Assembly (NCBI GenBank): GCA_963845185.1
Contig: CAWJRG010000010.1
Location: 389,297-453,296 of the forward strand
DNA from: an uncultured bacterium
Lineage (GTDB): Bacteria; Oederibacteriota; PGYV01; CAWJRG01
Direction of reading: 5' to 3'
Length of the DNA stretch: 64,000 bases
The position numbers were made by a program, and so were the translations under genes. Position 1 is the stretch's first letter; the number at the start of each line of letters is the position of its first letter. Positions 31,144 through 50,446 of the stretch are shown one piece after another. The notes below the pieces were generated by a model. The model worked only from the letters and a program-made list of their open reading frames with translations. It ran no database searches and was not told the DNA's origin.

Positions 31144-34077
31144 TTATTCTAACGATTCCTCAACGATTTTTATTTCTTCTTTATCTGAAATTTCGTAAAG
31201 TTCATAAATTTTTCGGTCAATCTCTTTATCAACAGCTTGTATTTCATTTTCTCTATTCGATTTAGATTCATTTAATGACAATATTTTTTCTACCAAACTA
31301 ATAATTTCAACAACTAAATCTTTATTGGTATTATTTAATTTAATTATTGGTATTTGTTCAATACTTTCAGGATAAACATTTAAATTATAACCTAGAAAAT
31401 TATTAAAATAGAAGTTTATTAGTTTTGAATTAATTAATCCTAACAAGAATTTAAGTGAATATTCCCTTGAAAGTTCTATATCGTTTTTTTCAATATTTAT
31501 TTTTCTTTTACCTAAAAAAGATTTATCTTTATTTTCAATATTATATTTTAGGATTACACAACTTAATGAGTCATCTGAATAGTATTTTTTATTATCATAA
31601 ACAGCTTTAATACCTTCTACACCTGTAACTTTTGAAATAAAAATTTTTTCTGATTCAAATAATTCCTCGAAAGCTGGCCTATATAATTTTGTTTTATCAT
31701 ATAACAACCATTTATCCGCCCAATCAAGTTTATATCTACTTATATTTTTACCTTTAATCATTTTTTTACAAAAATCATTTATTTTATTATCCAAATGAAA
31801 TTGTTCTACTGGAACCCCTCGAGCTCCCCATGAAGCTATAGCTACTTTCCCCAAATTAATACTATTCTCTTTTATTTTATTAATAATACCAATTGTTTTT
31901 TTAGAAAAAGCGTCTATTCGATACATATTTTCCGGAATTTCATAGAATTCTTTTTGTTTAATTTTATCAGTTTTATTGCCGTCATATACGGAAATGATAT
32001 TGCCATTTCTTTGCGCCTGGTCAGAACACTTTTCAATTATTAAAACAATATTTTTAACAGCAACGCCTTCAAATACATTTGTTTTAAATAAATTATAAAT
32101 ATTTATTATTTTACAGTTATCTAAAATGTATTTACGTAATTTTTGGCCATAATCTTGAGTAAGAAATGGGTAAGGTATAATAAAGCCCAATAAACCGCCT
32201 TCTTTAAGTAGCAATATAGATTTTTCAATGAAAGCTATATATATATCAAATCTTTTTAGCGAAGTTTCGTAAAATTTCATATAAAAAGCAAGTTCTTCAT
32301 CTTCAAGATTTTCAACGTTAATATATGGCGGATTTCCTATAATAAAATCAAAGCCATTATCACTAAGTGCTTCACAAAAGGAAATCTCAAAATTAAAAGG
32401 TCTAATTTTTTCAATGTCTTTGAAATTTTCCTTTAACAGATTCCGGGAATTAATTTTTAATTGTTCTTCCAAAACAAGTATTTTTTTATAAAGTTTTTCC
32501 TTTACTTCATCATCTGTGGTTTTATGAAAATGTTTTTTTAATTCTAATATGTCATTTATAAGTTCTTTACTATTAGAATTGGAGCTAAGCAAAGTTGTTT
32601 CTTTAATTACTTCTTCTGAAATTAATGAATTTCCACAACGAATATTTAATTTCATATTAGGCAATAATTTTTTCCCTTTTATATTTTGATACTTAATTCC
32701 TTCTAAGGTTTTAATTACTAAATTCAGTTTTGAAATTTCAACAGCTCTTTCATCTAAATCAACGCCATAAATATTGTTTTGTAATATTTTTTTTCTTAAA
32801 TCGAAATCAAATAACAATGTTCCTCCAGCAATCCGCCTATAATGAAAGAGTAATTCTTCAAATACCTTTATAAGGAAAGAACCACTACCGCAAGCAGGGT
32901 CTAATACTTTTATCTTTTTAAGATCCTCTTCAGTCTTAATTTTTGATAGTTTGGGTCTAATGGTATTTTCAATTATGTATTGAACGATGCTTTCGGGTGT
33001 GTAATAAATACCTTGTTTTTTCTTTTTCTTTTTACCTTCTTCTTCGTCTAAAGATATACTTTTTTTACTTTTTTTAAGCAATTCACCTAAATAATTTTCG
33101 TAAACTTCACCAATGATATTTACAGATAATTTTGAGAAATTAATAGAAGCTAGTTCTCGAATTATTGGAATAATAATAGCATCGTCAAGGTCAAGTTTAG
33201 TACATTCATCTATAGCAAAAATTTCCGAATTAAAACGCTCATCCATTTCTTTAAAAACAATATTTTTTAATTCGTCATATATGTTTTTCTTTGAGTGTAA
33301 TATTGCGTGTAGTTTGTCTTGCCCAATTATTTGATTGTCGGAACAGTAATCAATAAAAATAAGCTTATCTATAATTTTTTGTACAATTAATTCAATCTGC
33401 GTGGAGTTATAATGTTTTGAATATTTTTTTAAAATATATGTGCGTAATTGTTCTCTCCAATTTTTAAGTTTTATAAAAAAATCATTCTTAATTTCTTCTT
33501 GTTCAGGATAATATACAGAATTTAAGTCCCAACGCCCTTGTTCCTTAATTAGATTTTTTTTCGTTAATTTTGATAAAAACTCAATGCCTTGAGGTGATAA
33601 TATATTGATATAATTTTTTTTATCTACCTTATCCCATAGAATTGAATGAAAAGCATATTTTGTATCATTATAAAGTCTTTTCAAATGTGTATTGAAAACA
33701 CGCCATTCAATAAAATTTGTAAGAATACCCCAGTAAATACCTTCTGCTTCACAGTAACTATAAAGTTGTTCTGCATACGTTGTATCTTGATTAGTTCCAT
33801 TAAGTTTATCACTTTTAGAAGCGTCTTTCGTTTCAATAACTTGTATAGTATTGCCTTCATCGTCTTTTAATAAAATATCCGGTCTTTTACCAGTTTTGAC
33901 TTCTTGTCCTTCATTAATGAAAATATTATTTTTTTCCCAGCCTAAAATTTTTAGTAAATCCAAAAGATAATTTGCTTGAATATTTTCTTCTGAGGATTCA
34001 ACGGCATTATTTTCTTTAAAATCATTTAATAATTTTTCAATTTTTTGTTTAGTTATTTTCAAAATTTTATTATTCAT
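31144..34077 (-). CDS. Type IIG restriction-modification enzyme: single-chain PD-ExK endonuclease plus N6-adenine gamma-class methyltransferase plus target-recognition domain (TRD).
   Basis: 977 aa. N-terminus RPDILLKDDEGNTIQVIETKD (PD...ExK). Motif I VLDPACGSGSFL. Motif IV FIIGNPPYINV. Long C-terminal TRD. About 28% GC. Confidence 0.7.
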   Translation of the reverse strand: MNNKILKITKQKIEKLLNDFKENNAVESSEENIQANYLLDLLKILGWEKNNIFINEGQEVKTGKRPDILLKDDEGNTIQVIETKDASKSDKLNGTNQDTTYAEQLYSYCEAEGIYWGILTNFIEWRVFNTHLKRLYNDTKYAFHSILWDKVDKKNYINILSPQGIEFLSKLTKKNLIKEQGRWDLNSVYYPEQEEIKNDFFIKLKNWREQLRTYILKKYSKHYNSTQIELIVQKIIDKLIFIDYCSDNQIIGQDKLHAILHSKKNIYDELKNIVFKEMDERFNSEIFAIDECTKLDLDDAIIIPIIRELASINFSKLSVNIIGEVYENYLGELLKKSKKSISLDEEEGKKKKKKQGIYYTPESIVQYIIENTIRPKLSKIKTEEDLKKIKVLDPACGSGSFLIKVFEELLFHYRRIAGGTLLFDFDLRKKILQNNIYGVDLDERAVEISKLNLVIKTLEGIKYQNIKGKKLLPNMKLNIRCGNSLISEEVIKETTLLSSNSNSKELINDILELKKHFHKTTDDEVKEKLYKKILVLEEQLKINSRNLLKENFKDIEKIRPFNFEISFCEALSDNGFDFIIGNPPYINVENLEDEELAFYMKFYETSLKRFDIYIAFIEKSILLLKEGGLLGFIIPYPFLTQDYGQKLRKYILDNCKIINIYNLFKTNVFEGVAVKNIVLIIEKCSDQAQRNGNIISVYDGNKTDKIKQKEFYEIPENMYRIDAFSKKTIGIINKIKENSINLGKVAIASWGARGVPVEQFHLDNKINDFCKKMIKGKNISRYKLDWADKWLLYDKTKLYRPAFEELFESEKIFISKVTGVEGIKAVYDNKKYYSDDSLSCVILKYNIENKDKSFLGKRKINIEKNDIELSREYSLKFLLGLINSKLINFYFNNFLGYNLNVYPESIEQIPIIKLNNTNKDLVVEIISLVEKILSLNESKSNRENEIQAVDKEIDRKIYELYEISDKEEIKIVEESLE

Positions 34078-34251
34078 TAATCCTCCTTCAAATTGTCTTA
34101 CTTTACCACTTTTCTATTATTTTCTCAATTATTTTCGAGAGGCAAATAAAAAAAAGGCTTCGAGGTGTATAAAATTATTCATCTTTGACTTGTCTTAATA
34201 TCCCTTAAATTTTTATCTTTAATTGCGACATTTATGTTATATAGGTTATAT

Positions 34252-34653
34252 TTATTTAATTTTTTTCCCAGGTCGCCATGTAGTTTCTTTAACAAGCTTG
34301 CCATGCTTCCACTTTATTAAGCTAACAATTCCGGTACTGCTATCAAAATCCAATTCCCAACCATCTTTAACACCTTCAACATACGGAACAATTTTATCTA
34401 TCAATCCGCTAAAATCTTTATGGATTTCACCTTCGGTTGTATCATCCGGATTCAATCCATCAAAAATATTCCAGAGGTCTGAATTAACTTCACTATTTTT
34501 TGTTTCACGTCGTTGTTGTTGTTTTAGTTGCTGCTGTTGCTCATTATCTTGCTGATACCCCAGCAAAAAAAGTGCAGTCGCGTCATTAGAGTAGGCAAGA
34601 TAACTTGAGGATAAAAATATAATTATCATTAATAGTTTTAAATAAATTTTCAT
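34252..34653 (-). CDS. Small secreted hypothetical protein with a poly-Gln stretch.
   Basis: Signal peptide MKIYLKLLMIIIFLSSSYLAYS; QQDNEQQQQLKQQQ. Confidence 0.4.
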   Translation of the reverse strand: MKIYLKLLMIIIFLSSSYLAYSNDATALFLLGYQQDNEQQQQLKQQQRRETKNSEVNSDLWNIFDGLNPDDTTEGEIHKDFSGLIDKIVPYVEGVKDGWELDFDSSTGIVSLIKWKHGKLVKETTWRPGKKIK

Positions 34654-34933
34654 TTTTCCCTCCTGATTAAAAATTGCATTTTATATTTATATAATATATC
34701 TGAATATGTTTTAAACCATATTCACGAAGTTATTTATCACCTCTTAATATAAAATACACCCCAAAATAAAAAAGTCAATAGGATATAATAAAAAAGGGCT
34801 CCGTGTTTGTTAGGTGTGCAAATGATATAGAGGGTATATCAAAAGGTGTGAACGGAGCCCTTTGTAATTTTCATTTGTAAACCAACTTAATATCTTTGTC
34901 AATAATAAATTCTTTACACCTTTTTTTACGGGA

Positions 34934-36823
34934 TCATTTAGACTGCTCCTGCGTAGGTTCTTCCATACCTTCGGGCGGTGCCACGGTTGACTTTAACTCT
35001 TCAATCTTCGCTTTTATCTCCTTGTCGCCCGGGTTCATTTTAGAATACTTTTCATCGAACTCTACCGCACCCGTATAATCACCCAGATTCTCTTCGCATT
35101 CTCCCATATACTTGTAAATTTCCGCCTGGTCTCCGTGTTGCTCCCTGGTTTTTTCAAGCCACATAAACGCGCTTGCGTTGTCCCCTTGTGCGAAATATTG
35201 CATTGCATTTTTCCACTCACTGCTCTCATTATACGGGCCGCGCGCTATGACAGCGGGTTTGGTTGTATTATTGTCCGCGCCGGGCGCTATGGCAATTTGC
35301 TTCTGCGCTTTCAAGGAATATGCATTATTGATGTGCATAGCATGTACTATCTTCTTCATGCCAAGCCGCAGGACAAAGGCGCCTGCTACAACAGCAACAG
35401 CCATGGCTATAAGTATTGTGTTTCGCGCGATGGCAGAGCCATTCGGAATTTGGGATTTGGCATTTAGCATTCCAGAGCTTTCAACCTCTTGAATTTCTTG
35501 AGCTTTTGAACCTTGAGCATTGAGCTCTTGAACCTTTTCTTCATCCTTTTGCGCATTTGAACTTTGATCCTGCGCTTGCTTTCTGCGGGTGTACAGGCCG
35601 TATAAAAACACGGCAACTGATTTCAATATTTTGCCGGAAAAAGTCTTTGGCGTGTGGCCCGAGGCGGCGGTCAAAATATTTTTAACAAGGTCAAGGGAAT
35701 TCAATTTGGGATTTTCAGAGTTTGGGATTTGGAATTTACTTACCATACCCTCACTTTGAACCCCTTGAGCTTTTGAACCTTGAACCTCTCCTTCCACCTC
35801 TTCCCGGAGCGCCTCAGCCTCTTGTTGCCTTTTGGCATCCTTATCCGCTTTGCCAATAGCGATATCATATATAGAGGGCAGTTCGTTCTCAAATTCGTTA
35901 GCGTCGCCGGCCTGTCCCGGCCTCTCCTTTAGTTCCAGCCTTTTTAATCCAGCCATAGCGCTGTAAAACGCCATAAGCGCCTCAGGCTCGGACAGGTTCA
36001 TTATTACCTGGTACCCATGGGGCTTCATGCGCACCTGTATGTTTTTCGGGGCCTTAGACCAACGCCCGGCGTTTGGGTCATTCGGGTCAAACCTCTGGTT
36101 CTTTGCCCCTTTAACCTTTGAGGTCTTTCCGTCAGCCGGGAATGTCTCAGGAGCATTGCCTTTATTTACCCATTCTACCAGTTTCTCTGCCTGCTTAACC
36201 GTCATTTTGCGGTCAAACACGACCTTTAAAGCCTGTTCGACTGTATCCTGGTCATTTGGTTGTCCTTTGGCAAGGGCTGTCAACATCATTACAACGGCCA
36301 CCGGCAGCTGCCAGTCTTTGGATTTTACCGAATTTCGGTAAATCATTTCCTGTGCTGATTTATTCAATATTGACAAGGCTTTTATGGCATTACTTACCTC
36401 TTGTTGGCTGAGTGCAACTCTATCAGCTATCTGTATTTGGGTCAGGTCAGGGTGTTTTTCCATGTAATCGGCAATATACCTGTACTTGTCCAGCCAGTGG
36501 TATGGCTCCCCATTATTGTTCATGAATCCCTTCAGGGAAAAGTCCTCCCTGCCACCCGTAAATACTTCAGCCTCTATCTCGGTCCAGCCAAGTTTCATGG
36601 CTGCCCGCAGGCGCCTCTCGCCCTCAAAAAGCTCGTACCCGGCAAGCTCTTTGCCGGTGCACCCCTGCGAGGCTGTGTCCTGGGCGGTCAGTTCGCGGAC
36701 TTTCACGGATTCGAGCTGGCCGTTTGCCTTCATGGACGCAGCAAGGCTGTCAATACCGTCGGGGTTGATAAAATGCCTGGGATTTTCGGGATTAAAGCGG
36801 ATTTTTGAGATTTGAATTTTCAT
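34934..36823 (-). CDS. ParB/Srx N-terminal-domain protein with internal imperfect repeats, a TM helix and a C-terminal TPR-like region.
   Basis: KIQISKIRFNPENPRHF ... YELFEGERRLRAAMKLGWTEIEAEVF (GERRxRA ParB box). TM helix NTILIAMAVAVVAGAFVLRL. Repeats KAQGVQSEGMVSKFQIPNS and KAQEIQEVESSGMLNAKSQIPNGS. Confidence 0.6.
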   Translation of the reverse strand: MKIQISKIRFNPENPRHFINPDGIDSLAASMKANGQLESVKVRELTAQDTASQGCTGKELAGYELFEGERRLRAAMKLGWTEIEAEVFTGGREDFSLKGFMNNNGEPYHWLDKYRYIADYMEKHPDLTQIQIADRVALSQQEVSNAIKALSILNKSAQEMIYRNSVKSKDWQLPVAVVMMLTALAKGQPNDQDTVEQALKVVFDRKMTVKQAEKLVEWVNKGNAPETFPADGKTSKVKGAKNQRFDPNDPNAGRWSKAPKNIQVRMKPHGYQVIMNLSEPEALMAFYSAMAGLKRLELKERPGQAGDANEFENELPSIYDIAIGKADKDAKRQQEAEALREEVEGEVQGSKAQGVQSEGMVSKFQIPNSENPKLNSLDLVKNILTAASGHTPKTFSGKILKSVAVFLYGLYTRRKQAQDQSSNAQKDEEKVQELNAQGSKAQEIQEVESSGMLNAKSQIPNGSAIARNTILIAMAVAVVAGAFVLRLGMKKIVHAMHINNAYSLKAQKQIAIAPGADNNTTKPAVIARGPYNESSEWKNAMQYFAQGDNASAFMWLEKTREQHGDQAEIYKYMGECEENLGDYTGAVEFDEKYSKMNPGDKEIKAKIEELKSTVAPPEGMEEPTQEQSK

Positions 36824-36887
36824 GTTAAAACCCTCCTTTGATTCTTTTTTTAAAATATTATCATTTTACACCTAATAAAACAGGCCG

Positions 36888-36916
36888 ATTTTAGGAAATA
36901 TAACGTGGGTTGTCAA
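36888..36916 (-). promoter_or_regulatory. Second shared promoter module (TTGACA-17-TAAAAT plus about 60 nt of upstream sequence). It is reused before the ParB-like gene, before GT4 copy 1 (40648-40725) and in weaker form before flp (28760-28790).
   Basis: 80-nt near-identical stretch ...gggttgtcaagaattatttaaa.aattgaaattaacgcttattggataaaaaattga... at 36900-36975 and 40648-40725. Confidence 0.45.
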
Positions 36917-37131
36917 GAATTATTTAAAGAATTGAAATTAACGCTTATTGGATAAAAAATTGAGTTGACAAGCTAAGACAGGTTTGTAATTTATTAAATT
37001 AATTAAAAATCGTTCTCCCCGCCTTTAAAATTCGAATACCAGGCATCATCATAATAACTAAGGCTCCCCTGTGCCGGGATATGTTCCCAGACATTTTTTA
37101 TAATGTAACCTCCTGTTTGTTGTTTTAAAAA

Positions 37132-39276
37132 TTACTGTTGAATAATTATTTGCTCATTTTTGATGGTTATATTATTTATTTTATATAAATCAGTACTTAC
37201 AACGCCTTCGTCAAAGAGCGAGTTATATTCATTCAATCTGTTATCAACAATTATACCCGGCAAAGGAAAACCATTAATTTTATAGTAAGTATATTTAAAA
37301 CGCGGCTCATTGTTTATATCAAGATATGGTTTTACAGCATATTCATAAGTTTTATTTTTTCTTATGCCGCTATAAACAATATTTCCTTTTTCAAATCGAA
37401 TTACAGGATTTTCAATCTTATTTACCCTGTATCGGATAAATGTTGAAAAAATCTTAAAATTATTATCATTTAATTTCATTCCATAATTTTTACTAAATTT
37501 TTCAAAATCATTTTGACTTATTATCAGTTCGTTTACTTCAACTGCATCAAAAGTGGACAATTCCATGTTACCGTTAAACATTGTAAATCCGGCATTTTTG
37601 ACATTTAAATCTATTTTACTTATCCGGAATATTTGTTCATTTTTATTAAATTTATTTCCTATTATGCACCCGTCTGATACAAGCCTAATATCTGTTCCGC
37701 TCTGGTTTTGACTTACTGCCTTAACATTTACCCCTTTGATAAATGGAAACATTCTCTTGAATACTATATTAGCTTCTTCCTTATTCACAAACCTGTTTTG
37801 CCTTTTAAAAATAAACGCATTTGTTCCATCAGGAAGCGGATACTTTGCCATTTTCTTGAAACCGGTATACTTGCCCGATAATAGTAAATCTGTTATTTTT
37901 TTTCGTTCATCAAATCTTCCGGATTCAAGCCCGTTATCTTTGTCTTTTATCAGGACATAATCTGTAAAATAAGGAAATTTATCGCTTTCAGTAACAGCAA
38001 TGTTGTATTTACCGCTTAGCACTTTAAACCCCATTGTGTAATTATTTATATAACAAAAATCCGGCATAACACATAAACGGGTTTTGCCTTTTGAATCAGA
38101 CTTAACGTCGGAAAGCATTTGTTCAATTTTCCAATCAGATTCTGATGGCCATATTTTTATAGGCCAGTTTTGAATAATATTAAAATTACTTACAATGTAT
38201 ATTGCCATGGACAAAACAACTACAGTTGTCGTAGTAATTATGCCTGCGATTTTGTTTTTTATTATATAAATCAAATAAGACGTCAATATTGCCGCAAAAG
38301 GCAGAATTGGCATCAAATATCTGCCTTGCTTGTTTTTTATTAGAAAAAAAATTGTAAGCGGCACAATAACATACATCACGTACTTCCTGTTTTTTTCATC
38401 CAAAATCATGATAACAATTGCTGCCATCAATAAAAAAATAAATATTGGATTCATAGAACCGGCCAGTGCCTGAAAACAGAGTGCCAAACTCTTTAAAGAT
38501 AATACAGGAGGCGCGTTTTGTAAGTCAGCTCCGCTATATGCTGCAAATTTTAATATGTCATATGCAGTGAACCCGTTCTCGATATACCATGCACCGCATA
38601 TAAGTATTGAGGAAACAGCAAAAATAGCTAGATTTTTCAGCCTGTCCCCCATCTTCTCCCTGTTGAATACCTGCAATTCCAATATTAATGGGGTTATTGC
38701 ATAAATAATAAATGTCCATTTTGTAAGCATTCCAATTCCGGCTGTTATACCCGCAAGAAAAGAACAGACACCCGATTTAAAATTTTCAGTTCTTAATATG
38801 AGATAAATATATATGGCTGTAACTGAAGCCAGCGGAACGTCAAGCATAAAATAATGTCCTTCGGTAATTAATGCCGGATATGCCGCTGCTATTGACGCTG
38901 CGGCAATAGCGCTTTTAAACCCAAAAATCCGCCTGGTAAAAAGAAATACTCCTGTTATTAACAGTAATTGAAATAAAATAATTATATATGTAAACCCGTC
39001 TTCGTTGCTTCCAAATACCCGCGCTGAAACCGAACCAGCTATCGGAACAAACGGCGGATAATAGCGGTTTATTGATAAAAAAGCGTCCGGAAAATCGCGC
39101 GGCTTGGTTATGCGGAATTGCTCAGCATTTTTAAGATGCAATGATTCATCCCATCGTTGCGGGGTATTATCCATCCTTAGCCATAAGACATTAGATATTG
39201 CAATAAATATAAGTAATGAAACCAAAATAGAAATTTTTATTATTGTTAAATTATTTCCTATTTTTAATTCGGGCAT
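37132..39276 (-). CDS. GT-C fold glycosyltransferase of the GT39/GT83 (PMT/ArnT-like) family. Polytopic membrane protein.
   Basis: Start MPELKIGNN at 39276 (GGAGG RBS). More than 10 predicted TM helices. DE motif (RWDESLHL) in the first loop. Large C-terminal soluble domain. Confidence 0.6.
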   Translation of the reverse strand: MPELKIGNNLTIIKISILVSLLIFIAISNVLWLRMDNTPQRWDESLHLKNAEQFRITKPRDFPDAFLSINRYYPPFVPIAGSVSARVFGSNEDGFTYIIILFQLLLITGVFLFTRRIFGFKSAIAAASIAAAYPALITEGHYFMLDVPLASVTAIYIYLILRTENFKSGVCSFLAGITAGIGMLTKWTFIIYAITPLILELQVFNREKMGDRLKNLAIFAVSSILICGAWYIENGFTAYDILKFAAYSGADLQNAPPVLSLKSLALCFQALAGSMNPIFIFLLMAAIVIMILDEKNRKYVMYVIVPLTIFFLIKNKQGRYLMPILPFAAILTSYLIYIIKNKIAGIITTTTVVVLSMAIYIVSNFNIIQNWPIKIWPSESDWKIEQMLSDVKSDSKGKTRLCVMPDFCYINNYTMGFKVLSGKYNIAVTESDKFPYFTDYVLIKDKDNGLESGRFDERKKITDLLLSGKYTGFKKMAKYPLPDGTNAFIFKRQNRFVNKEEANIVFKRMFPFIKGVNVKAVSQNQSGTDIRLVSDGCIIGNKFNKNEQIFRISKIDLNVKNAGFTMFNGNMELSTFDAVEVNELIISQNDFEKFSKNYGMKLNDNNFKIFSTFIRYRVNKIENPVIRFEKGNIVYSGIRKNKTYEYAVKPYLDINNEPRFKYTYYKINGFPLPGIIVDNRLNEYNSLFDEGVVSTDLYKINNITIKNEQIIIQQ

Positions 39277-39413
39277 TTCAATTCCTCCGTTGTGCAATAT
39301 ATACCTTGGATATAAAACTGTTCTTATTTCAAACAGTTTATCACAAATTATTTTGCGGGTTGCAGCAAATTAGACCTTGTTTTTTGCAGAACCTCGTCAA
39401 TCGAAGTTTACAA

Positions 39414-40570
39414 CTAATCTTCCCTCCCCATCATTTCCCCATACATTTTTAAATGCTTCATTGCAATATCATTCCACTCCGGCACCATCTTTTTCGTCCT
39501 TTTCCTGCGGCCTGTGAAATCCATTGCGGTCTTTAGTTCTTCCGGTGAGCCGGGTTTCACGTAATATATATTTTCACCGGGATAAAACCCGTGCTTATCC
39601 CTGCTTGCCGTCACTATGTACGTATCCTGTTGCGCAGCGGCGAGAAAACTGCCGTTGCGCGGGGACAGGCCGCCTTTAAACGGGAACACGCATAAATCCG
39701 CAGAAGCCAGCCACTGCGCTATTTTTTGCGGGCCAAGCCCGGGAATGAACTTAATTTGCCCGAATACGCCTGCTTCAATTGCCTTTTGTTTCCACTCTGC
39801 CTGAAATGCCTCTGATTCATTGACGCGGCCAAGGTGCACCCATTTGAACTTAAGGAAATCAAAAGCTTTTACAATCTCGTCAAAACCTTTGGCCCCGGTT
39901 ATAAACCCGAATGTTACCATTAATTTCCGGCCTTTCCTGAGCCCTGCCTGTTTTTGTATTTTTTTCTTTTCGCTGCCTTTTAAAACTGCCTTTGGTATTT
40001 TTGAGCCTATTTCTATCACTTTTTTTGCCCTGTTGCCGAGCGCTGCCGCAATCAGCATGCCGGTTGTTTTCATGTTTTCCTCTTCCACAAAAACTGCTGC
40101 GTCGGAGAACGCGAGGTTTATTGCCAGCCTCAGCCTGCCGGTAAATTTCAGGCGCTTTAAAGGCTCGTGCAGCATGGACACCACTTTCACGCCCGGCATG
40201 AAAATTTTTATCAGCATGGGTAAAAGGTTTGTGCCGGGATTTTTCCTGTACTGCGTGTTTGGATACTGGAAATGCGCTATGTTATGTCAGGTTTCAGTCC
40301 CTTTATCCTTTTCAGAATGCTGAAAACATTACCTGCTTTCCATGAATTTACTTCAGGATACACCGATGGGTTCCCGCCTGACTTTTTTATACCGAGGTAA
40401 GATGACGTCAGCACTGACACGCCAGCGCCGCTGCGCGCGAGCGTTTCAGCAAGTAAAGACGTGTAGTCCCCTATGCCGCACACCTCAGGCGGGTAGCTGC
40501 CTATTACAAACAGCACGTTCAAATTATTTTTCTTCATACTGCCCCATCCTGTTGTTAAAAAAATCCGCAT
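39414..40570 (-). pseudogene. GT4 glycosyltransferase, copy 1. Disrupted by a 5-nt tandem insertion near 40240.
   Basis: N-terminal ORF 40277..40570 (MRIFLTTGWGSMKKNN...KPDIT) and C-terminal ORF 39414..40217 together match intact segments of copy 2. gctatgttatgtcagg here versus gctatgtcagg in copy 2. Confidence 0.6.
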
Positions 40571-40876
40571 AACTATTTCTTTATTATTTGCCTATAGAGT
40601 ATTATCATTTGCCACCTAATAAATTAGTTTAATTTTATGAAATACCCTGCGGGTTGTCAAGAATTATTTAAAAAATTGAAATTAACGCTTATTGGATAAA
40701 AAATTGATTTGGCAAGCTTGGGTTTTTAAGGTTGCGCTTGGAAGGAAAAAGTATTAAGATTCGAACAAAAGGAGCACAATAATGGCAAATATAATACTGA
40801 AAAAAGAAACAGAAATAATGCAAGTCATTTATAGCAAATGCAGGTCAATTAGAAAAGCAAGTGTGGTATCGGCAGC

Positions 40877-42397
40877 TTGAATAAACCCATTTTTAAATTA
40901 AATACAATTATTATTATCCTTTTGTATACCATTCCTGCGGCAATTGCTGTATTTTTTCTTTTTGGCAACCTCGGCAATCGATACCTGTGGCAGGATGAGG
41001 CAGTAACGGCTTTTGTCGGCAAGACTGTAATCCAGCGGGGACTACCGTACGGGGATGACGGACTGAATATCGTAACGCAAAACGACAGATGTGATTGGGG
41101 AAACGGCAGGATATGGAAATGGCATCCATGGCTTCAGTTTTACATAGCCGCGGCTTCCATGAAGCTTTTTGGATTTGATTCCTTTGGCGCAAGGTTCCTG
41201 TTTTCCCTTTTCGGGTTGTTTACAATAATAATTTTATATTTTTTCGCCATGGAACTGTTTTCAGATAAAAAAATCGCCTTTTTCTCGGCGCTATTGCTTA
41301 TTGTCACGGTGCCTTTCATGCTGATTTCCAGGCAATGCAGGTATTACAGCCTGTTAAACTTCTTTTTTTTATTGACCCTCCTGGGTTATATTAGGGCAAT
41401 AAAAGGGAGAAAATACGGTTATACGCTTTTTGCAGTCGCCATGTTTTTTCTTTTTCATACGCAGTATGTATATTGCGCGCCTGCCGCAGGAGCCGTACTG
41501 CTGCATGCGTTTTTATACCATAAAAACCGGTTGAAAATTCTGGCTGTAATAATGGCCTGCGTTTTTATCATAAGTTTCCCAATGTACCAGTTTTTTTATA
41601 AATCAAATTTTCTCACAAAAAATTTCATTTGGGATATGTTGAAAAGGATTCATTCGTACTTTTTTTATTATACATCCTTTATTTTAAAATATATACTGCC
41701 TGGTTATATGGTGGCTATTGGTGGACTACTGCTTTTTATAAAGATTAAAAACGATAAAAGTTATTTTTTTCGGACAGACGGCATGCAGGAAGGATTAAGC
41801 CTTGTTTTCTTCTTAATAGTTTTTACATTCATATTTCTCTTCACAGGGCGCAATGATTATTCCAGGTATATCGAGCCGTTAATACCATTTTTTGCCCTGA
41901 TAACGGCCGTGATTTTAATTAAATCCGCGCAGATTACTCCTGTCATCCCGGCAGTACTCATTGTTTTATTGTTAAACACTTATAATATAAAAGATTTTTT
42001 ATATGAACTTACCCATAATTATGATGGGCCAATAAAAGGCATATCAAAATACCTGAATGAAAACGCGAAAAAAGGTGATATAGTCGCTATGGCGGGATAC
42101 GGCGATATAGCAATTAAATTCCATACGGGATTAAGAGTGGTTGGCGGAGAATCAAAAGACTTGAATAAGCAGGATATACTAAATGCAAAATGGGTGATAG
42201 TAAGGAAACATACGGTGTATGACAGGGATGAATTCTCAAAAAATGAAATTTTAAGTCTGGTTGACCTCAAAAAATACAAAAAGATAGTAATAAATTACCC
42301 TGATACAACATTTGAAACCAGGGAAAATCCCGAAGAGCACATGTTTAAGACCGACACAAAAGAAGACAGGGTTGTAATTTACGAAAAAATGAATTAA
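40877..42397 (+). CDS. Second GT-C (PMT/ArnT-like) membrane glycosyltransferase.
   Basis: Track ORF starts at TTG. RYLWQDEAVTAFVGK DE motif after the first TM. Multiple TM helices plus C-terminal soluble domain. Confidence 0.55.
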   Translation: MNKPIFKLNTIIIILLYTIPAAIAVFFLFGNLGNRYLWQDEAVTAFVGKTVIQRGLPYGDDGLNIVTQNDRCDWGNGRIWKWHPWLQFYIAAASMKLFGFDSFGARFLFSLFGLFTIIILYFFAMELFSDKKIAFFSALLLIVTVPFMLISRQCRYYSLLNFFFLLTLLGYIRAIKGRKYGYTLFAVAMFFLFHTQYVYCAPAAGAVLLHAFLYHKNRLKILAVIMACVFIISFPMYQFFYKSNFLTKNFIWDMLKRIHSYFFYYTSFILKYILPGYMVAIGGLLLFIKIKNDKSYFFRTDGMQEGLSLVFFLIVFTFIFLFTGRNDYSRYIEPLIPFFALITAVILIKSAQITPVIPAVLIVLLLNTYNIKDFLYELTHNYDGPIKGISKYLNENAKKGDIVAMAGYGDIAIKFHTGLRVVGGESKDLNKQDILNAKWVIVRKHTVYDRDEFSKNEILSLVDLKKYKKIVINYPDTTFETRENPEEHMFKTDTKEDRVVIYEKMN

Positions 42398-43540
42398 ATT
42401 TTTATAATTTCTCTATACATTTTTAAATGCTTCCCTGCAATATCCTCCCACTCCGGCACTAATTTTTTAGTCCTTTTGCTTTTCCCCCTGAAATCCATGG
42501 CTTTTTTTAGTTCTTCTGCCGGGCCGGGTTTCACGTAATATATATTTTCACCGGGATAAAACCCGTGCTTATCCCTGCTTGCCGTCACTATGTACGTATC
42601 CTGTTGCGCAGCGGCGAGAAAAACTGCCGTTGCGCGGGGAAAGGCCGCCTTTAAACGGGAACACGCATAAATCCGCAGAAGCCAGCCACTGCGCTATTTG
42701 CTGCGGGCCGAGCCCGGGAATGAACTTAATTTGCCCGAATACGCCTGCTTCTGTTGCCTTTTGCTTCCACTCCAGCTGAAATGCCTCTGATTCATTGACT
42801 CTGCCAAGGTGCACCCATCTGAACTTTTTGCTGTCAAAAGCCCTGATAAGCTCGTCAAAACCTTTGGCTGCGGTTATAAACCCGAATGTTACCATTAGTT
42901 TCTGGCCTTTTTTAAGCCCTGCCTGTTTTTGTATTTTTTCCTTTTCGCTGCCTTTTAAAACTGCCTTTGGTATGTTTGAGCCTATTTCTATCACTTTTTT
43001 TGCCCTGTTGCCGAGCGCTGCCCCAATCAGCAGGCCGGTTGTTTTCATGTTTTCCTCTTCCACAAAAACTGCTGCGTCGGAGAACGCGAGGTTTATTGCC
43101 AGCCTCAGCCTGCCGGTAAATTTGAGGCGTTTTAAAGGTTCGTGCAGCGTTGACACGACTTTCACCCCGGGCACAAAAATTTTTATCAGCATTGGCAAAA
43201 GGTTTGTGCCGAGGTTTTTCCTGTATTGCGTGTTCGGATACTGGAAATGCGCTATGTCAGGCTTCAGTTCCCTTATTCTTTTCAATATGCTGAAAACATT
43301 GCCTGCTTTCCATGATTTTACTTCAGGATAGACTGCCGGGTTTGCTTTGGATTTTTTTATGCCAAGGTAAGATGACGTCAGCACCGACACGCCAGCGCCG
43401 GTGCGCGCGAGCGCCCCGGCAAGCAAAGAAGTATAGTCTCCTATGCCGCACACCTCGGGCGGAAAACTGCCTGTTACAAACAGCACGTTAAAATTATTTT
43501 TCTTCATACTGCCCCATCCTGTTGTTAAAAAAATCCGCAA
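42394..43540 (-). pseudogene. GT4 glycosyltransferase, copy 2. Disrupted by +1 T in a T4/T5 homopolymer near 42625.
   Basis: ORFs 42569..43540 and 42394..42588 overlap in different frames. AACGGCAGTTTTTCTCGCC here versus AACGGCAGTTTTCTCGCC in copy 1. Otherwise more than 90% nt identity to copy 1. Confidence 0.6.
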
Positions 43541-44375
43541 AAGCCCTGAGCACGTATTTTAAGTTCTGCCTGTTTTTAAATATGGCGCCGAGCAAAGGCC
43601 AGCGCACGCACCACGCCGCAACAAAAAAAAGGAAAGCCGGGAAATGCTTGCGCGATATATAAAGCCTGTTGCGTGTGAAATAATAAAGCCTTAAAGGCGA
43701 GTCAGGGAAGGTTTTTGAAACCTTGTGGTACACTGTTGAGTCCGCTGCCATGGTTACTGCCATGCCTGATTTTTTTATCCGCGCGCATATGTCTGTTTCC
43801 TCGAACAGAAGAAAGAGTTTTTCGTCAAGCATGCCTGCTTTTTCTATTGCCTGCCTTGACAGCATCATGCTGCAGCCCGATACATAGTCGAGGCGCGCGC
43901 CGTCAAGGACCTTGATGCCCGTGTCCTGTTTGTTCTCCAAATAATGCGACGTAGTGCCGCTGAACTTGCGATAAATCCCGCCCGCGAACCACGTTGTTTT
44001 TTTGTCAGGGTAGCACAGTATCCTGGAGCCTGCCGCGCCTGTCCCCGGTTTTTTCTCAAACGCGCTGAGCAGGCCGCTGCACGCGGATTTGTCAGCCAGC
44101 GTGTCGTTGTTCAGTATCCATATGTAATCTGCGCCCTGCTCCATGGCGCGGCTTATGCCCGCGTTGTTCCCGCCGGCGTAGCCGAGATTAGCCGCAAGTT
44201 CCAGGTAGCTTATGTCAGGGTGCGCCTGCTTTATTTTTTCCAGAGAGCCGTCATGCGAGCCATTGTCCACGCACAATATGGAAACCTGCGTGTCCTGCGA
44301 TTTAAGCGGCGTTATGCACTCTATGGTGTCGGAAAAATTTTTCCATGTGAGCACAACTGCAAAAACTTTTGCCAT
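43494..44375 (-). CDS. GT2 family glycosyltransferase.
   Basis: MAKVFAVVLTWKNFSDTIECI...VDNGSHDGS; DxD-type region. Start chosen at MAKVF. Confidence 0.6.
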   Translation of the reverse strand: MAKVFAVVLTWKNFSDTIECITPLKSQDTQVSILCVDNGSHDGSLEKIKQAHPDISYLELAANLGYAGGNNAGISRAMEQGADYIWILNNDTLADKSACSGLLSAFEKKPGTGAAGSRILCYPDKKTTWFAGGIYRKFSGTTSHYLENKQDTGIKVLDGARLDYVSGCSMMLSRQAIEKAGMLDEKLFLLFEETDICARIKKSGMAVTMAADSTVYHKVSKTFPDSPLRLYYFTRNRLYISRKHFPAFLFFVAAWCVRWPLLGAIFKNRQNLKYVLRAFADFFNNRMGQYEEK

Positions 44376-44556: not shown

Positions 44557-45858
44557 TCATCCCTCAACCGGAGTTGTGGGGATTTCTTTCCGGATGAATC
44601 CGAGCGCGAGCAGCCCGAAAAAATAAATTGAGTCCTCTATAAAATAAAACTCCTTGCCGAAAAATCCCGACGCCAGCCAGCCTGCCAGCCAGCACAGGCT
44701 TGCAAGCGCAAAGGCGTCTCCTGCTGCCCTGCGCGCCAGGAAAATGACCGAGGAGCCGAAAAAAAACAGCGCTGCCAGGAGGCCTAAAGCCCCGGACGCC
44801 AGCGCTATGCCGAGGTAAAACGAATGCGGGGATTCTATCAGCGCCGCCATTCCCTTGTTGATGCCATCAAAAACATACTGCGGGTCATTGTGGATTTTTA
44901 TGCCATACGTTGCGAAGCCCGTGCCTGTCCACAGGGACTTATTGAGCATGTCCATGGCAGCTGCCTGCAGTTTTGCCCTTTCAGAAAACAAAATATCCTG
45001 CTCCGAGCTCGCCAGCCTCTGGCGCATTGCCGGCACAAAAAGCATAAATGCAATGTAAAGCACGGCAAAAAGAAGCAGCGGCGCCGCTGCCTTTGCCCTT
45101 TGCATTCCTGCTGCGGGCTTGAATTTAACTGTTGCCATTACTGCCAGGGAAACAAATACCGCGATAATGTTCGAGCGCGAAAAAGTCAGGATAAGCGCGG
45201 CCATTGCTGCTGCCAGCAGCAGCAGCCAGAAGATGATTTTTGATTTGTCAGCCCTGAAATAAAAATACGCGGTTATGAAGGTTATGAAAAAAAGCATGTA
45301 ATTGGAAAAATAATTGGTGTCGCAGAAAATCCCGCCCAGCCTCAGGCTGCCGTTATAATTCCAGTGCACAAGGCTGCCTGCCTTGAAAATGCGGAAAAAC
45401 CAGTCCGCGGAATTCCCGGGAAAAAGCTCCAGAAATGCCGCTGCCGTGCTTATTATGCCTGTAACGAGCAGTACTTTTGCCAGGGTTTCCCTTCCTGAGT
45501 CATGCTGAAACGCGCTTAAACACGCGCAAAAAACCAGCATTGCAACTGCCGGGTTAAGCGCGTATTTCAGGTTTTGCAGCCGCGGCTCCCTGAAAAAAGC
45601 CAGGATCACCCCGTATAAAACGCAGGCGCAGATAAAAAGAAGCTCCCTTGGCAGAGTGTTTTTTTCCCTGCGCAGCAGGCGCAAAAGCCACGCAAGGATG
45701 AAAATAAAAGCAAGCGCCTTTGTGAGCGTAAAGGTATTCAGGCCCGGCAGTTTGACAGAAAAAGGCAAAAGCAGGTAAAAAGAAAATGACGCGTAAAGCG
45801 CCAGCCCCAGCCAAAAGCAAACCCTGTCTAAAATGTCTTTTTTTGCATCGTTGTCCAT
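44557..45858 (-). CDS. O-antigen ligase/polymerase-like (Wzy_C) membrane protein.
   Basis: About 11 TM helices with a large loop. Size and hydropathy match the Wzy/WaaL family. Confidence 0.5.
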   Translation of the reverse strand: MDNDAKKDILDRVCFWLGLALYASFSFYLLLPFSVKLPGLNTFTLTKALAFIFILAWLLRLLRREKNTLPRELLFICACVLYGVILAFFREPRLQNLKYALNPAVAMLVFCACLSAFQHDSGRETLAKVLLVTGIISTAAAFLELFPGNSADWFFRIFKAGSLVHWNYNGSLRLGGIFCDTNYFSNYMLFFITFITAYFYFRADKSKIIFWLLLLAAAMAALILTFSRSNIIAVFVSLAVMATVKFKPAAGMQRAKAAAPLLLFAVLYIAFMLFVPAMRQRLASSEQDILFSERAKLQAAAMDMLNKSLWTGTGFATYGIKIHNDPQYVFDGINKGMAALIESPHSFYLGIALASGALGLLAALFFFGSSVIFLARRAAGDAFALASLCWLAGWLASGFFGKEFYFIEDSIYFFGLLALGFIRKEIPTTPVEG

Positions 45859-45862
45859 ATTT

Positions 45863-47335
45863 TTACTGCCTTTTTTTCAGCACGTACCTGATGTCCTCAA
45901 CATAAGTCCTTGCGTTGAGCGCGAAGCAGACTGCGGCATAAACGGCGATTGCAAGGCACGCGAAAATTATCAGCAGGAAGAGGTTTTTCACCGGGTGCAT
46001 TCCCGCAAGCCATTGTATGAGCGGGACAGTCAGGCAAAAAGCAGCCACAGGCGCAAAGAGCGCGCTTATCGGCTTGAACCCGTAGTCCCTTGCCGCGTCA
46101 GCCATGTACTTGAACGAAGTGAGGTTCATGAGCAGGTTCGCCATGCCAAAGCCCGCTATGCCGAACTTCGGCACGAGAAAGACAGAGAGCAGCCACATCG
46201 TACCGGCCCAGACAAAGGAATACCTGAAATTATAGCCTGCCCTGCCCATGGCGTTAAACGCCGCGACAAGCGGGTATATCGCGGCAAGTATGAAATTTAT
46301 CGGTATAAAGTACTTGAAAAGCACGAGCGCGCTGGCCCATTTATCAGTATAAATTATGTGCGTTATCGGCCCGCTCAGCGACAGTATTACGCATGAAAAT
46401 CCCGCTATCAACAGCGCGTTCAGGCGCACGGTGGTGTTCAGCACGCGGCTGAACTTCTCTTTGTCCTGCTGCAGCTTGGAAAAAAGCGGGAAAAGGACCC
46501 TGGACAATATGGCTGACGCGAGCAGCGGGTAGTTTGCGACCGAAGTCGCCCAGTTGATAAGTCCCACGGAAGCGGTGCCCAGCATCGGCGCGATGACAAC
46601 CGGTATGAAGCTGTCCTTTGCCATGTTTACGAAGTGCACGCCCTGGAAAGAAAGGCCGAAAGGAAGGATGGGCTTGATGAGCCTGAAGTTCCATTTAAAC
46701 CGCGGCTTGAACCTGGCGAAAAAGAATACAAATAAAAGCATGCAAATGTTTTTCACAGCGAGCCCGGCGATAAGCGAGAAAACCCCTTTGTGCATGAGCG
46801 CCAGCGTCACCGCGGTTGCCTGGAAAGCCACGACCTCTATGACTTCGAGCGCGGCAATCCTCGCAAAAGAAAGCTTGCGCTCCATCATCATGACCGGTAT
46901 TATCCTGAAAGAAACCAGGTAGTAGGATACTATGGAAATGCGTATGAGCCAGATTGTCGACCTGTCGGCGAAAAGCCCGCCAGCAAAAAACGAGGCGATG
47001 AGCAGAAGCACGGCTATGCCTGCCATCACTACCTGTTGGAAGGAAAACACGGCGTCAATGGCACGTTCGGAAACCTTGCCCGGCTTCCTGATGAGCGCGC
47101 TTCCCAGGCCGCCGTCCCCCACGTACGTCAGAAAATTTATGACAAAAAGTATTATGAAATATATCCCGAAGTCCGAGGGCATGAGCACCCTCGCAAGCGC
47201 CACCTGCCCGGCAAAATTCACCAGGTTCATGGCAGCCTGCCTGAATATCATGAAAAACGCCGCTCTTGAAGCTTTATGCCTCAGCTCGGACATTGCCGCC
47301 AACTTTGCGGCCCCCTGCGTTTTTTTCTTTCCCAA
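45863..47335 (-). CDS. Polysaccharide biosynthesis flippase (Wzx, MOP superfamily).
   Basis: 490 aa, 12-14 TM helices. N-terminal RQAAMNLVNFAGQVALARVL is typical of Wzx. Confidence 0.6.
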   Translation of the reverse strand: MGKKKTQGAAKLAAMSELRHKASRAAFFMIFRQAAMNLVNFAGQVALARVLMPSDFGIYFIILFVINFLTYVGDGGLGSALIRKPGKVSERAIDAVFSFQQVVMAGIAVLLLIASFFAGGLFADRSTIWLIRISIVSYYLVSFRIIPVMMMERKLSFARIAALEVIEVVAFQATAVTLALMHKGVFSLIAGLAVKNICMLLFVFFFARFKPRFKWNFRLIKPILPFGLSFQGVHFVNMAKDSFIPVVIAPMLGTASVGLINWATSVANYPLLASAILSRVLFPLFSKLQQDKEKFSRVLNTTVRLNALLIAGFSCVILSLSGPITHIIYTDKWASALVLFKYFIPINFILAAIYPLVAAFNAMGRAGYNFRYSFVWAGTMWLLSVFLVPKFGIAGFGMANLLMNLTSFKYMADAARDYGFKPISALFAPVAAFCLTVPLIQWLAGMHPVKNLFLLIIFACLAIAVYAAVCFALNARTYVEDIRYVLKKRQ

Positions 47336-47362
47336 AAGCGGCTGCCTGATATTGCCACGGTT

Positions 47363-47710
47363 TTAGTCCCCTATCATTTTTCTTATTATGTTTATATGGT
47401 CTTCCTTTATCACCAGGAATTCCATGCCAGACCTGTATTTTTTTATGCTGTCGTCGAATTTCGACCACTTGACTTCGGCAAAGGTGGCTATCGGCTCATG
47501 CTCGTCCTCGAGCATTATGTCCAGCCTCAGCATCTGGTCGGGGTTGAGGGTTTCGTCGCACAAAAGCTGTATGCCCATTATGCTAATGTCCGCGCTGTCA
47601 ACCGTCTTTTTCGGCGGCTCCCAGCCCGGCTTGTCAATGTCGGAATTGGAAATTATTTTATACACCACTTTCAATTTTTTATTTGCCCTCTTATGCCTTC
47701 TTCTTTCCAT
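47363..47710 (-). CDS. PilZ domain (c-di-GMP-binding) protein.
   Basis: RRHKRANKKLKVVYKI ... DISIMGIQLL (RxxxR ... D.S.xG). Confidence 0.55.
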   Translation of the reverse strand: MERRRHKRANKKLKVVYKIISNSDIDKPGWEPPKKTVDSADISIMGIQLLCDETLNPDQMLRLDIMLEDEHEPIATFAEVKWSKFDDSIKKYRSGMEFLVIKEDHINIIRKMIGD

Positions 47711-47880
47711 GAATAATTCTCCCTGGGCATTGCACTGCTCCTGTTTCGGCGCTTCATTTGAACTGCGCCTTTTAATTTGCTTTATAACTAATTATATACT
47801 TTTATCATTAAAATATCAAGGATATGTGTGGTGAAAAATGACGGCAAAGAATTTTGATATCGCCTACCGACTTTTTAAAC

Positions 47881-48819
47881 TTACAATTTTTCATATGATT
47901 CTGTTCTATTGTGCCGCCTCGCAAGTTCGCTCGCATATTTGAAACCTAAACTATTCTTGTTTGCTTCTGCCCAATCAGTCAGTTTGGTTTCTCCTGTTGG
48001 ATGCGAATTGACACATAAAAGTCCGTCCATTAACCCCTTTATTTCTTCTTTTGTAATTACCACATCCCTAACAATCTTGCCCAAAATCCATCCCGCTATA
48101 TATCCCCAAAAAGGTGGAATTGAAACAAGCAGCCGTTTCTTACCGATTATCCTGCCAATAATTTCAACAAGTTCTCTGTAAGAAAATGTTTCAGGACCAA
48201 TAGCATCTATAATTGCATTCTCTGATTTCTCACCTTTTTCAACTGCTAATTTTGCTAAATCATCAACATAAATTGGCTGTAATCGATATTTCCCATCCCC
48301 AAATATACCCATAACGGGCAGGTATCGCAGCATCCAAGCAATATTATTAATCAATATGTCTTCCTTTCCAAAAAGGACAGCAGGACGCAAAATAGCATAC
48401 GAAATTCCTAACTCTATTAATGCTTTTTCCAATTTTGCCTTGCCATTAAAATACGGCAATTTCGAATTTTCTGAAGGGTTCGTAATACTTATATGGACTA
48501 TTTTCTGAACTCCTGCTTCTTCTGCCGCTTGAAACATCTTTAAAGTATTTTCAACCGCTGTTGTGTGGTTAAAATCTCTGTAATCAAACCTCACCCAATA
48601 AGTATTGTACAGAACCTTTGTCCCTTTTAATGATTCAACAATTTTATTTTTGTCATTAAAATTAAAGGGATAGGATTTAATTTTCCCTTCAAATTGATTT
48701 GTCCTATCAGGTGAATTGGTAAGCGTATAGACATCATAACCCTTATTTAATAATCGTCTTGCTATGTATTTCCCCGAATATCCAAATGCTCCTGTTACAA
48801 CATGTTTTACTACGGTCAT
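47881..48819 (-). CDS. NAD(P)-binding epimerase/dehydratase-like (NmrA/SDR a/b) protein.
   Basis: VTGAFGYSGKYIARRLL Rossmann motif; YxxxK-like region. Confidence 0.55.
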   Translation of the reverse strand: MTVVKHVVTGAFGYSGKYIARRLLNKGYDVYTLTNSPDRTNQFEGKIKSYPFNFNDKNKIVESLKGTKVLYNTYWVRFDYRDFNHTTAVENTLKMFQAAEEAGVQKIVHISITNPSENSKLPYFNGKAKLEKALIELGISYAILRPAVLFGKEDILINNIAWMLRYLPVMGIFGDGKYRLQPIYVDDLAKLAVEKGEKSENAIIDAIGPETFSYRELVEIIGRIIGKKRLLVSIPPFWGYIAGWILGKIVRDVVITKEEIKGLMDGLLCVNSHPTGETKLTDWAEANKNSLGFKYASELARRHNRTESYEKL

Positions 48820-48919
48820 TCTTTCCCCTTTCTTTTATCTAACCTGCCCCTATTTTATCACCTTAAATTTTAATGGCAAACCAAATAATTGATATATATC
48901 TTTGCTTTATCAGTTTATG

Positions 48920-49741: not shown

Positions 49742-49790
49742 TCTTTCCCCTTTCTTTTTTAACCTACCCCTATTCTGCCAGCTCTGTTTT

Positions 49791-50432
49791 TTACATTATC
49801 CCCTCTACTTCTTTATTCATCCTTTCAAAAAAATCCTTCATATACTCATGCCTTTTCTGCGCCATGCGCCTGCCGGCGCTGGTAAGCATGCGGCTTTTAA
49901 CCTTGCGCAGCTTTACCATATACTCCCTGTATGCCGTGTCTTCTGCCGTATATGGTTTTGTCATGCTTATGTCAGTGCCTTTGCTGTTATGGAGTTTGGC
50001 GCCTATTTCGCCCGCGAATAAAAAAGCCCTTCCTATGCCGACCGCGCCGATAGAATCCAGCTTGTCCGCGTCAAAAAGCACTTTTGCCTCAAGCGTGTCA
50101 GGCCTGTTTTTGCCCCTGAACCTGTGGCTCGCTATGCATTGGGTAATTTGTTTTATTTTTTCCGCTCCGAATTTGTGCCTTTTCAGCATATGCCCCACTA
50201 TTGCGGCGCCGCGCTCCGCGTGGTCTATCCTGCCGCTTGACTTGTCCTCGCAGCTGCGCGCTATGTCGTGTAGGATTGCCGCGTATTTTATTGTTTCAAT
50301 ATCAGCTTTTTCTTTTTTGCCTATGCGCAGCGCCAGCTTAAACACCCTTTCAGTGTGCTCCCAGTCGTGGCTGCCCTTGGACCAGGAAAACATTTTCTTT
50401 GCTTCTGTTTTGATTTTATTGAAGGTGTCCAT
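49791..50432 (-). CDS. HD-domain phosphohydrolase.
   Basis: H..ILHDIARS ... HAERGAAIVGHML ... D motif spacing of the HD superfamily. Confidence 0.6.
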   Translation of the reverse strand: MDTFNKIKTEAKKMFSWSKGSHDWEHTERVFKLALRIGKKEKADIETIKYAAILHDIARSCEDKSSGRIDHAERGAAIVGHMLKRHKFGAEKIKQITQCIASHRFRGKNRPDTLEAKVLFDADKLDSIGAVGIGRAFLFAGEIGAKLHNSKGTDISMTKPYTAEDTAYREYMVKLRKVKSRMLTSAGRRMAQKRHEYMKDFFERMNKEVEGIM

Positions 50433-50446
50433 AAGATATGCCTGCT

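Follow-up and report, generated by a model that had tools for sequence, protein, structure and literature searches.

How does a duplicated gene come to be broken in both of its copies, in each of them at another place and by another kind of lesion? This question is raised by a stretch of 64,000 nucleotides (nt) from an uncultured bacterium of the candidate phylum Oederibacteriota (GenBank assembly GCA_963845185.1, contig CAWJRG010000010.1, forward-strand positions 389,297 to 453,296), which in its full length is called the window here. It contains two neighboring paralogues, copy 1 and copy 2, of a predicted family 4 glycosyltransferase (GT4) gene, each interrupted by a single frameshift. Coordinates are positions within the window, and the bases of lesions and runs are read on the coding (minus) strand. 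At somewhat better than even odds, the lesion of at least copy 1, a duplication of five nucleotides, would be a genuine and very recent null mutation; copy 2 is less certain. The finding represents no new mechanism, but an ordinary pair of paralogues in a variable polysaccharide locus with two young, non-programmed insertions or deletions (indels).

The genes are contained in two direct repeats (39430–40572 and 42404–43542), with one minus-strand glycosyltransferase gene per repeat. A repeat search, MAFFT and blastn yielded an identity of 89.4% over 1144 columns with 2 gaps; with the lesions repaired, 116 mismatches remained at 1137 positions (89.8% identity). In the coding part there were exactly two gaps, namely the two lesions (Table 1). 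Lesion 1 is a tandem duplication, by which ACATA became ACATAACATA (copy 1 CTGACATAACATAGCG versus copy 2 CTGACATAGCG). Lesion 2 is an additional T in a short run (copy 2 CAGTTTTTCTC versus copy 1 CAGTTTTCTC). As assembled, copy 1 consists of open reading frames (ORFs) of 86/97 and 267 amino acids (aa), the 86 aa being encoded at 40277–40537 and the 267 aa at 39414–40217, and copy 2 of ORFs of 312/323 and 64 aa (312 aa at 42569–43507, the remaining frame at 42394–42618). Removal of 5 nt from copy 1 resulted in an uninterrupted frame of 372 aa, removal of 1 nt from copy 2 in one of 370 aa, and the repaired products were 88% identical. The start codon is likely the ATG at 40537 and 43507, respectively (MKKNN...). 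A first-pass annotation of the window had described a duplicated GT4-type gene with one independent frameshift per copy (a 5-bp tandem insertion and an extra T in a T4 run) and otherwise fully open frames; the alignment and the ORFs bear this out, as do Pfam, the structural model and Foldseek for the type of gene. Its figure of more than 90% nucleotide identity is slightly too high, the measured values being just below 90%.

On the predicted structure, both copies are glycosyltransferases of the GT-B fold and family GT4. The Pfam profile PF13692 (Glyco_trans_1_4) scored 27.0 bits against a cut-off of 27, and PF00534 (Glycos_transf_1, 20.9 vs. 26.4) and PF13439 (Glyco_transf_4, 22.3 vs. 28.5) remained under their cut-offs; homologues of the gene carry precomputed PF00534/PF13692/PF13439 matches. 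An AlphaFold2 (AF2) model of repaired copy 2, built on 12 sequences, reached a predicted local distance difference test score of 88.4 and a predicted template-modelling (TM) score of 0.86. It shows two Rossmann-like domains and, at the C-terminus, a helix that returns to the N-domain, i.e., the GT-B architecture. The best Foldseek matches in the PDB were all GT-B enzymes of families GT4 and GT5 (MshA, PimB', BshA, HepE, WaaG and glycogen synthase), with E values of 6e-15 to 1e-11 for the top matches and TM scores of about 0.7. The two-Rossmann-domain fold is thus common to the window protein and to retaining GT4 enzymes of solved structure, e.g., MshA (3c4q), PimB' (3oka), BshA (3mbo, 6n1x), HepE (4xsu) and WaaG (2iv7), although the identity is only 13–18% and the canonical EX7E motif is not evident in the window copies. 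In the EX7E region, matched by eye, most homologues read PFKEGVTxRHGTFLAAA and both window copies PFKGG, with Gly at the position of the first Glu. In the alignment PFKGG occurs also in one homologue (P0006), and another one (P0003) has PFTKG; when the copies were aligned by eye with the canonical motif, no Glu was seen in them eight residues after the first EX7E position.

According to the alignment and the AF2 model, lesion 1 breaks the chain between LKPDI and AHFQYPN, in a strand at residues ~85–90 of the N-terminal Rossmann domain. Lesion 2 breaks it between SPRNGSF and LAAAQQ, and the invariant L-A-A..Q helix (residues 294–301) and all beyond it are lost. Both alleles as written would be null, each being truncated inside a Rossmann domain and lacking parts which the model suggests to be structurally essential. 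The breaks map to residues ~85 (N-domain) and ~294 and the boundary between the domains to about residue 190; since neither break is at this boundary, the fragments could not make up a functional split enzyme. A split but functional GT-B enzyme, similar to Alg13/14, was ruled out for this reason.

The closest homologues (42–49% identity) come from several independent metagenomes and metagenome-assembled genomes (MAGs). They are single-copy and intact, with 360–370 aa, and in frame at both lesion sites, which answers the suggestion of the first-pass annotation that relatives be checked for intact versions. Each of them directly follows and overlaps a GT2 gene, and their loci also contain Wzx and Wzy (order Wzx-Wzy-GT2-GT4). 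In the window, it is copy 2 which overlaps the GT2 gene, and by this synteny copy 2 is the ancestral copy. A remnant of the GT2 gene (the last 14 codons and the stop) travels with copy 1 and shows that copy 1 is derived from a GT2-GT4 junction like that of copy 2. The duplication itself is not an artefact of assembly: an independent Logan contig (L051), which is 100% identical to positions 36934–39577, ends 29 nt into an identical tract of 117 nt shared by the copies, where a graph with k=31 is bound to branch when the read set contains both copies; this confirms that both exist in those reads. Duplication of a whole module of GT4 and PMT genes was considered and ruled out, since the two PMT_2 proteins of the locus are essentially unrelated.

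How old are the lesions? Comparison of the repaired copies gave a rate of synonymous change (dS) of 0.29 and a ratio of nonsynonymous to synonymous change (dN/dS) of 0.24; purifying selection has thus acted on both genes during almost the whole time since they separated. All but 4–6 of 67 highly conserved columns of the family are kept, also downstream of both lesions, and further stops or indels were found in neither copy. Derived amino-acid changes are more numerous in copy 1 than in copy 2 (21 vs. 9; binomial p=0.043), and those of copy 1 include two at near-invariant positions of the family (T120M and N178K). This excess indicates relaxed constraint or a changed specificity of copy 1; it is mild, and no other sign of relaxed selection and no secondary lesion were found in the two genes.

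The mismatches between the copies are clustered. The probability of a longest identical run of at least 117 nt was P = 2e-4 (20000 permutations), and third codon positions differed at 0/30 sites within the identical tracts, compared with 12/30 next door. Such a mosaic indicates tracts of gene conversion between the copies. The extra T of copy 2 is located inside the tract of 117 nt; unless it is not real, it must thus have arisen after the most recent conversion. From the low dN/dS, the invariant residues kept downstream, the position of the extra T in an identical tract and the intact homologues it follows that the lesions are either very young or artefacts. The first-pass annotation had seen no secondary decay and had taken the lesions for recent, reversible by slipped-strand mispairing, or sequencing errors. 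Its first point is correct for stops, indels and dN/dS, not for the excess of derived changes in copy 1; of the three options, recent or artefactual can stay, and reversible has to go, for reasons given below.

A plausible course of events would be as follows. A GT4 gene which is normally single and located behind GT2 has become two paralogues, copy 2 still residing in the wzx-wzy-GT2-GT4 operon and copy 1 being displaced behind a promoter-like cassette of its own, ahead of a PMT_2 gene of low GC content. The paralogues diverged under purifying selection, with exchange of sequence by gene conversion. In the assembly each copy has one non-programmed, very young indel, by which both as written would be null alleles, i.e., very young pseudogenes. 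The lesions are of ordinary spontaneous types, namely a short tandem duplication and a +1 in a short run. The additional T of copy 2 would be either a mutation just as recent or an error of the consensus. Young pseudogenes in polysaccharide clusters are known from the frameshifts in the O-antigen cluster of Yersinia pestis and from the disruption of rfb in E. coli K-12. As in those cases, single recent null lesions are found in otherwise intact genes, a surface structure would have been lost in one lineage, if the lesions are real, and the locus is hypervariable among relatives. Different from them, both paralogues are struck here, with no damage to the other genes of the locus, and the lesions are read from a consensus only.

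Several points weigh against genuine mutations. The source is a metagenomic contig of 908 kb, for which a long-read consensus is plausible, and a homopolymer +1 is the typical error of such a consensus. A second gene of the window, which encodes an NHL-repeat beta-propeller protein with a C-terminal IPT/TIG domain, is also broken. It shows a clear +1 near GGGAAATGGG (61839–61843), which splits an NHL repeat between WGGIGNG and NGQF, and a second break at about 61110–61140, probably a -1 frameshift, for which a blastx check guided by paralogues yielded no match; both are at short runs. These breaks bring the count to at least 3–4 frameshifts in 64 kb, which exceeds what a clean genome should show, and they reflect either the indel error rate of the assembly or pseudogenisation of a surface protein. 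Over 10,629 bp, three independent Logan contigs (L050, L051 and L055; run ERR10755942) differed from the window by 4 mismatches and 0 indels, but this agreement is weak evidence, since at 1 indel per 16 kb none would be seen about half of the time; moreover, these contigs stop on reaching the repeated tracts or short of them, and neither lesion is covered by them. Scans of JGI metagenomes for the exact patterns across both lesion sites gave no match. Finally, no other gene of the locus is broken, so that a genuine loss of the step must have been very recent.

The most serious alternative is that both lesions are errors of consensus or assembly in what is probably a long-read metagenomic contig, and that both genes are intact and expressed in the cell. 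We regard this as possible, though clearly less likely than genuine mutation of copy 1. It would account for the complete lack of decay downstream of the lesions and for the homopolymer +1 of copy 2. That the contig derives from a Nanopore MAG is a guess. According to two reports, pipelines for Nanopore-only MAGs include polishing to cut indel errors, which depend on coverage and homopolymers (PMC12313526; PMC9262707). The window resembles cases of such indel errors in long-read MAGs in its very long contig and in isolated 1-nt indels at short runs which split otherwise perfect genes. It differs in three respects: the 5-nt duplication is atypical for a consensus error, none of the longest homopolymers is disturbed, and the independent contigs are in agreement with the window. 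A tandem duplication of 5 nt is a classic spontaneous mutation. The error-prone A7, T7 and A8 runs in and around the GT4 genes are all in frame, and no homopolymer covered by the Logan contigs differs from that of the window, not even their A/T runs of 7–8 nt. If 4 indels are placed uniformly in 64 kb, both copies are hit with P = 0.0036, i.e., about 0.004, which argues against random errors and would fit lesions that are biologically connected.

Two further observations concern the assembly. Contig L055 ends at 61871, 30 nt from the first frameshift of the NHL/TIG gene; by de Bruijn logic, that frameshift does not account for the end of the contig, and a search of the stretch 60780–62420 around this gene revealed no exact repeats of at least 31 nt. 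No homopolymer of the window exceeds 8 nt, and none does so in the other contigs compared (JGI, Logan, ENA) except for one 9-nt run in L005. The spectrum of homopolymer lengths was tried as a fingerprint of the sequencing platform and proved uninformative, since the window resembles the other contigs.

Should genuine lesions be present in both copies, the pair could perhaps act as two complementary defective cassettes, and conversion or unequal crossover between the lesions would rebuild an intact gene, a glycan switch based on recombination and free of simple sequence repeats (SSRs). This we consider improbable. The lesions are at opposite ends of the direct repeats, so that each copy is intact where the other one is broken, and the interval of 634 nt which separates the lesion sites has an identity of 92% and includes exact tracts of 90, 58, 48, 41 and 33 nt; the mosaic identity described above shows that conversion between the copies has occurred earlier. 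An in-silico crossover in the tract of 90 nt produced an intact hybrid ORF of 372 aa at the operon position, with 2,975 bp deleted, including the intervening PMT_2 gene. Such a deletion is irreversible, and thus only gene conversion could be a true switch. However, the complementary geometry arises by chance 50% of the time for two independent lesions, and no recombinase, invertase or dedicated site was seen nearby. If the idea were true, RecA-dependent conversion or deletion would restore the glycosyltransferase and thereby alter the structure of the surface glycan in a bacterium of a candidate phylum.

Still less probable, and in our opinion quite unlikely, is that the two indels are OFF states of phase variation by slipped-strand mispairing, with the glycan step toggling at high frequency. 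Glycosyltransferases of surface glycans are classic phase-variable genes, both types of lesion could in principle arise and revert by slippage, and both copies are otherwise pristine. In Helicobacter pylori, two paralogous fucosyltransferase genes, futA and futB, are independently switched on or off by frameshifts. The window pair is similar in that the genes are recombining paralogues for a surface glycan and that the frame of each is disrupted independently; futA and futB, however, belong to GT10 and slip at long poly-C tracts (about C12–C14), whereas the window pair is of the GT4/GT-B type and has no long tract. The same applies to the SSR contingency loci for lipooligosaccharide and lipopolysaccharide (lgtA/C/D of Neisseria with poly-G, lic2A/lgtC of Haemophilus with tetranucleotides, cgtA/wlaN of Campylobacter with poly-G), where a single step of glycan extension is likewise subject to frameshifts, but at a hypermutable repeat which the window copies lack. 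The sites consist of T4 or T5 and of a 5-mer in one versus two copies, and Tandem Repeats Finder detected no array at either lesion. The longest runs of the genes, A7 and T7 (three or four per gene), are all in frame and stable between the paralogues. Variability of SSRs by indels was found to climb steeply and non-linearly with tract length in 42 species. The statement of the first-pass annotation that expression is likely switchable, insofar as it rested on slippage, is thus not supported.

Programmed recoding, i.e., ribosomal frameshifting or transcriptional slippage past the lesions to a full-length enzyme, has only the perfectly conserved downstream frames in its favor and was dismissed as next to impossible, since inspection revealed no slippery motif at either lesion: copy 1 would require a -1 shift and has no X XXY YYZ heptamer, with TAG directly after the duplication; copy 2 would require +1 at UUU UCU, with no rare, slow or stop codon in the A site; the homologues have no such site and are simply in frame; and T5 is too short for slippage of RNA polymerase.

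Table 1. Positions of the GT4 copies, their lesions and other features of the locus within the window.
Feature	Position	Strand	Remarks
GT4 copy 1 (displaced paralogue)	39414–40537	-	Frameshifted; from ORFs, alignment and Pfam
GT4 copy 2 (ancestral position)	42394–43507	-	Frameshifted; start overlaps stop of GT2 gene; from ORFs, alignment and synteny
Lesion 1, tandem duplication ACATA/ACATA, +5 nt	40278–40287	-	In copy 1; TAG stop directly after; plus-strand letters gctatgTTATGtcag
Lesion 2, T5 vs. T4 in copy 1, +1 nt	42619–42623	-	In copy 2
GT2 remnant, last 14 codons and stop	40524–40568	-	ADFFNNRMGQYEEK and stop; travels with copy 1; frame 2 of both copies
Identical tract, 117 nt	39549–39665 = 42523–42640		Apart from extra T in copy 2
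Identical tract, 90 nt	40059–40148 = 43034–43123		
GT2 glycosyltransferase	43494–44375	-	Translationally coupled to copy 2
Wzy-type polymerase/ligase (Wzy_C)	44557–45858	-	Pfam 3e-14
Wzx/MOP flippase	45863–47335	-	Polysacc_synt_3 3.8e-47; MOP flippase in NCBIfam
PMT_2 (GT-C, ArnT/PMT-like) membrane glycosyltransferase	40922–42397	+	Between the copies; GC 37.5%
Second PMT_2 gene, 714 aa	37132–39276	-	Directly downstream of copy 1; GC 32.9%
AT-rich repeat of ~120 nt (promoter cassette)	40600–40718	-	Upstream of copy 1; near-consensus sigma70-type promoter TTGACA-17-TAAAAT (40660–40632)
Same cassette	36856–36974	-	Upstream of ParB-like gene; promoter 36916–36888
Same cassette, shorter version	28752–28800		
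NHL-repeat beta-propeller gene with C-terminal IPT/TIG	60804–62396	-	In three frames: ORFs 61827–62396, 61112–61852 and 60804–61142

The surroundings of the copies are those of a putative hypervariable surface-polysaccharide locus of the Wzx/Wzy type: a flippase and a polymerase adjoin the glycosyltransferases, and the order of genes matches that of the homologous loci. The GC content is 33–37% in the PMT_2 genes, 47% in the GT4 copies and 50–53% in GT2, Wzy and Wzx. The stop of the PMT_2 gene between the copies (plus strand, 42395–42397) overlaps that of copy 2 (minus strand, 42394–42396), the two genes being convergent; a terminator would thus have no space there. Copy 1, which has a promoter-like cassette of its own upstream, therefore seems to belong to a separate transcription unit rather than to be a dead by-product. 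The two full versions of this cassette share 85% identity, and the sequence may represent a common regulatory module or, alternatively, a small mobile element carrying a promoter. The other full version precedes a ParB-like gene of 629 aa (34934–36823, minus strand), whose product has an unusual architecture, with a ParB N-terminal domain and a helix-turn-helix motif, a long linker of low complexity, a hydrophobic segment and TPR repeats at the C-terminus.

For a neighboring ATP-binding cassette (ABC) ATPase, the nearest relative with a name is from a Candidatus Goldiibacteriota MAG (73% identity), which gives a tentative assignment of the lineage. Relatives with a 90% identical ABC transporter keep the HD and PilZ genes; past PilZ, the glycan genes differ (47362–53643 compared with contigs L052, L053 and L054). 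In L052 and L053 GT87, other GT4s and an acetyltransferase are found there, and in L054 a MurJ-like gene immediately behind PilZ is where the contig stops. An epimerase and an insert of 273 aa, present at 47881–49741 of the window, are missing from L054, and about 1 kb separates its SUI1/FMN_red genes from the ABC genes, a place taken in the window by about 9 kb of NHL-repeat genes. From these three differences it follows that the window contains several strain-variable islands.

Other features of the window may be mentioned. An island of very low GC content (~28000–34700; 27–33% compared with ~48% in the flanks) adjoins the glycan locus. It contains a type IIG restriction-methyltransferase of 977 aa (31144–34077), a DUF4062 protein (30123–31115) and small ORFs of unknown function, and by its content looks like a horizontally acquired defence island. 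A putative group II intron with three Rfam matches is located at 15669–16238 on the minus strand (D1–D4 at 15989–16238, domains V/VI at 15669–15745); as only about 240 nt separate the Rfam parts, it is apparently ORF-less, with a length of ~570 nt. It adjoins a PDC-S01/DUF4143 AAA ATPase gene (14097–15332). Genes for secreted repeat beta-propellers (NHL, Kelch, RCC1) and for FGE-sulfatase domains are unusually dense at 2274–20179 and 54067–62396, and a Tad/Flp pilus cluster is located at about 22–28 kb.

The practical value of this locus is that of a test case, which can be resolved cheaply from reads. If the lesions should turn out to be errors, "phase-variable" calls on MAGs would need support at the level of reads, since pairs of pseudogenes can be consensus artefacts. 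If they are real, one step of sugar transfer to the surface polysaccharide would have been lost in this strain only just now, both redundant paralogues having been knocked out. In a lineage of which little is known, this could then be a signature of selection, for example by phages or grazers, on a hypervariable glycan locus with a restriction-modification and defence island beside it.

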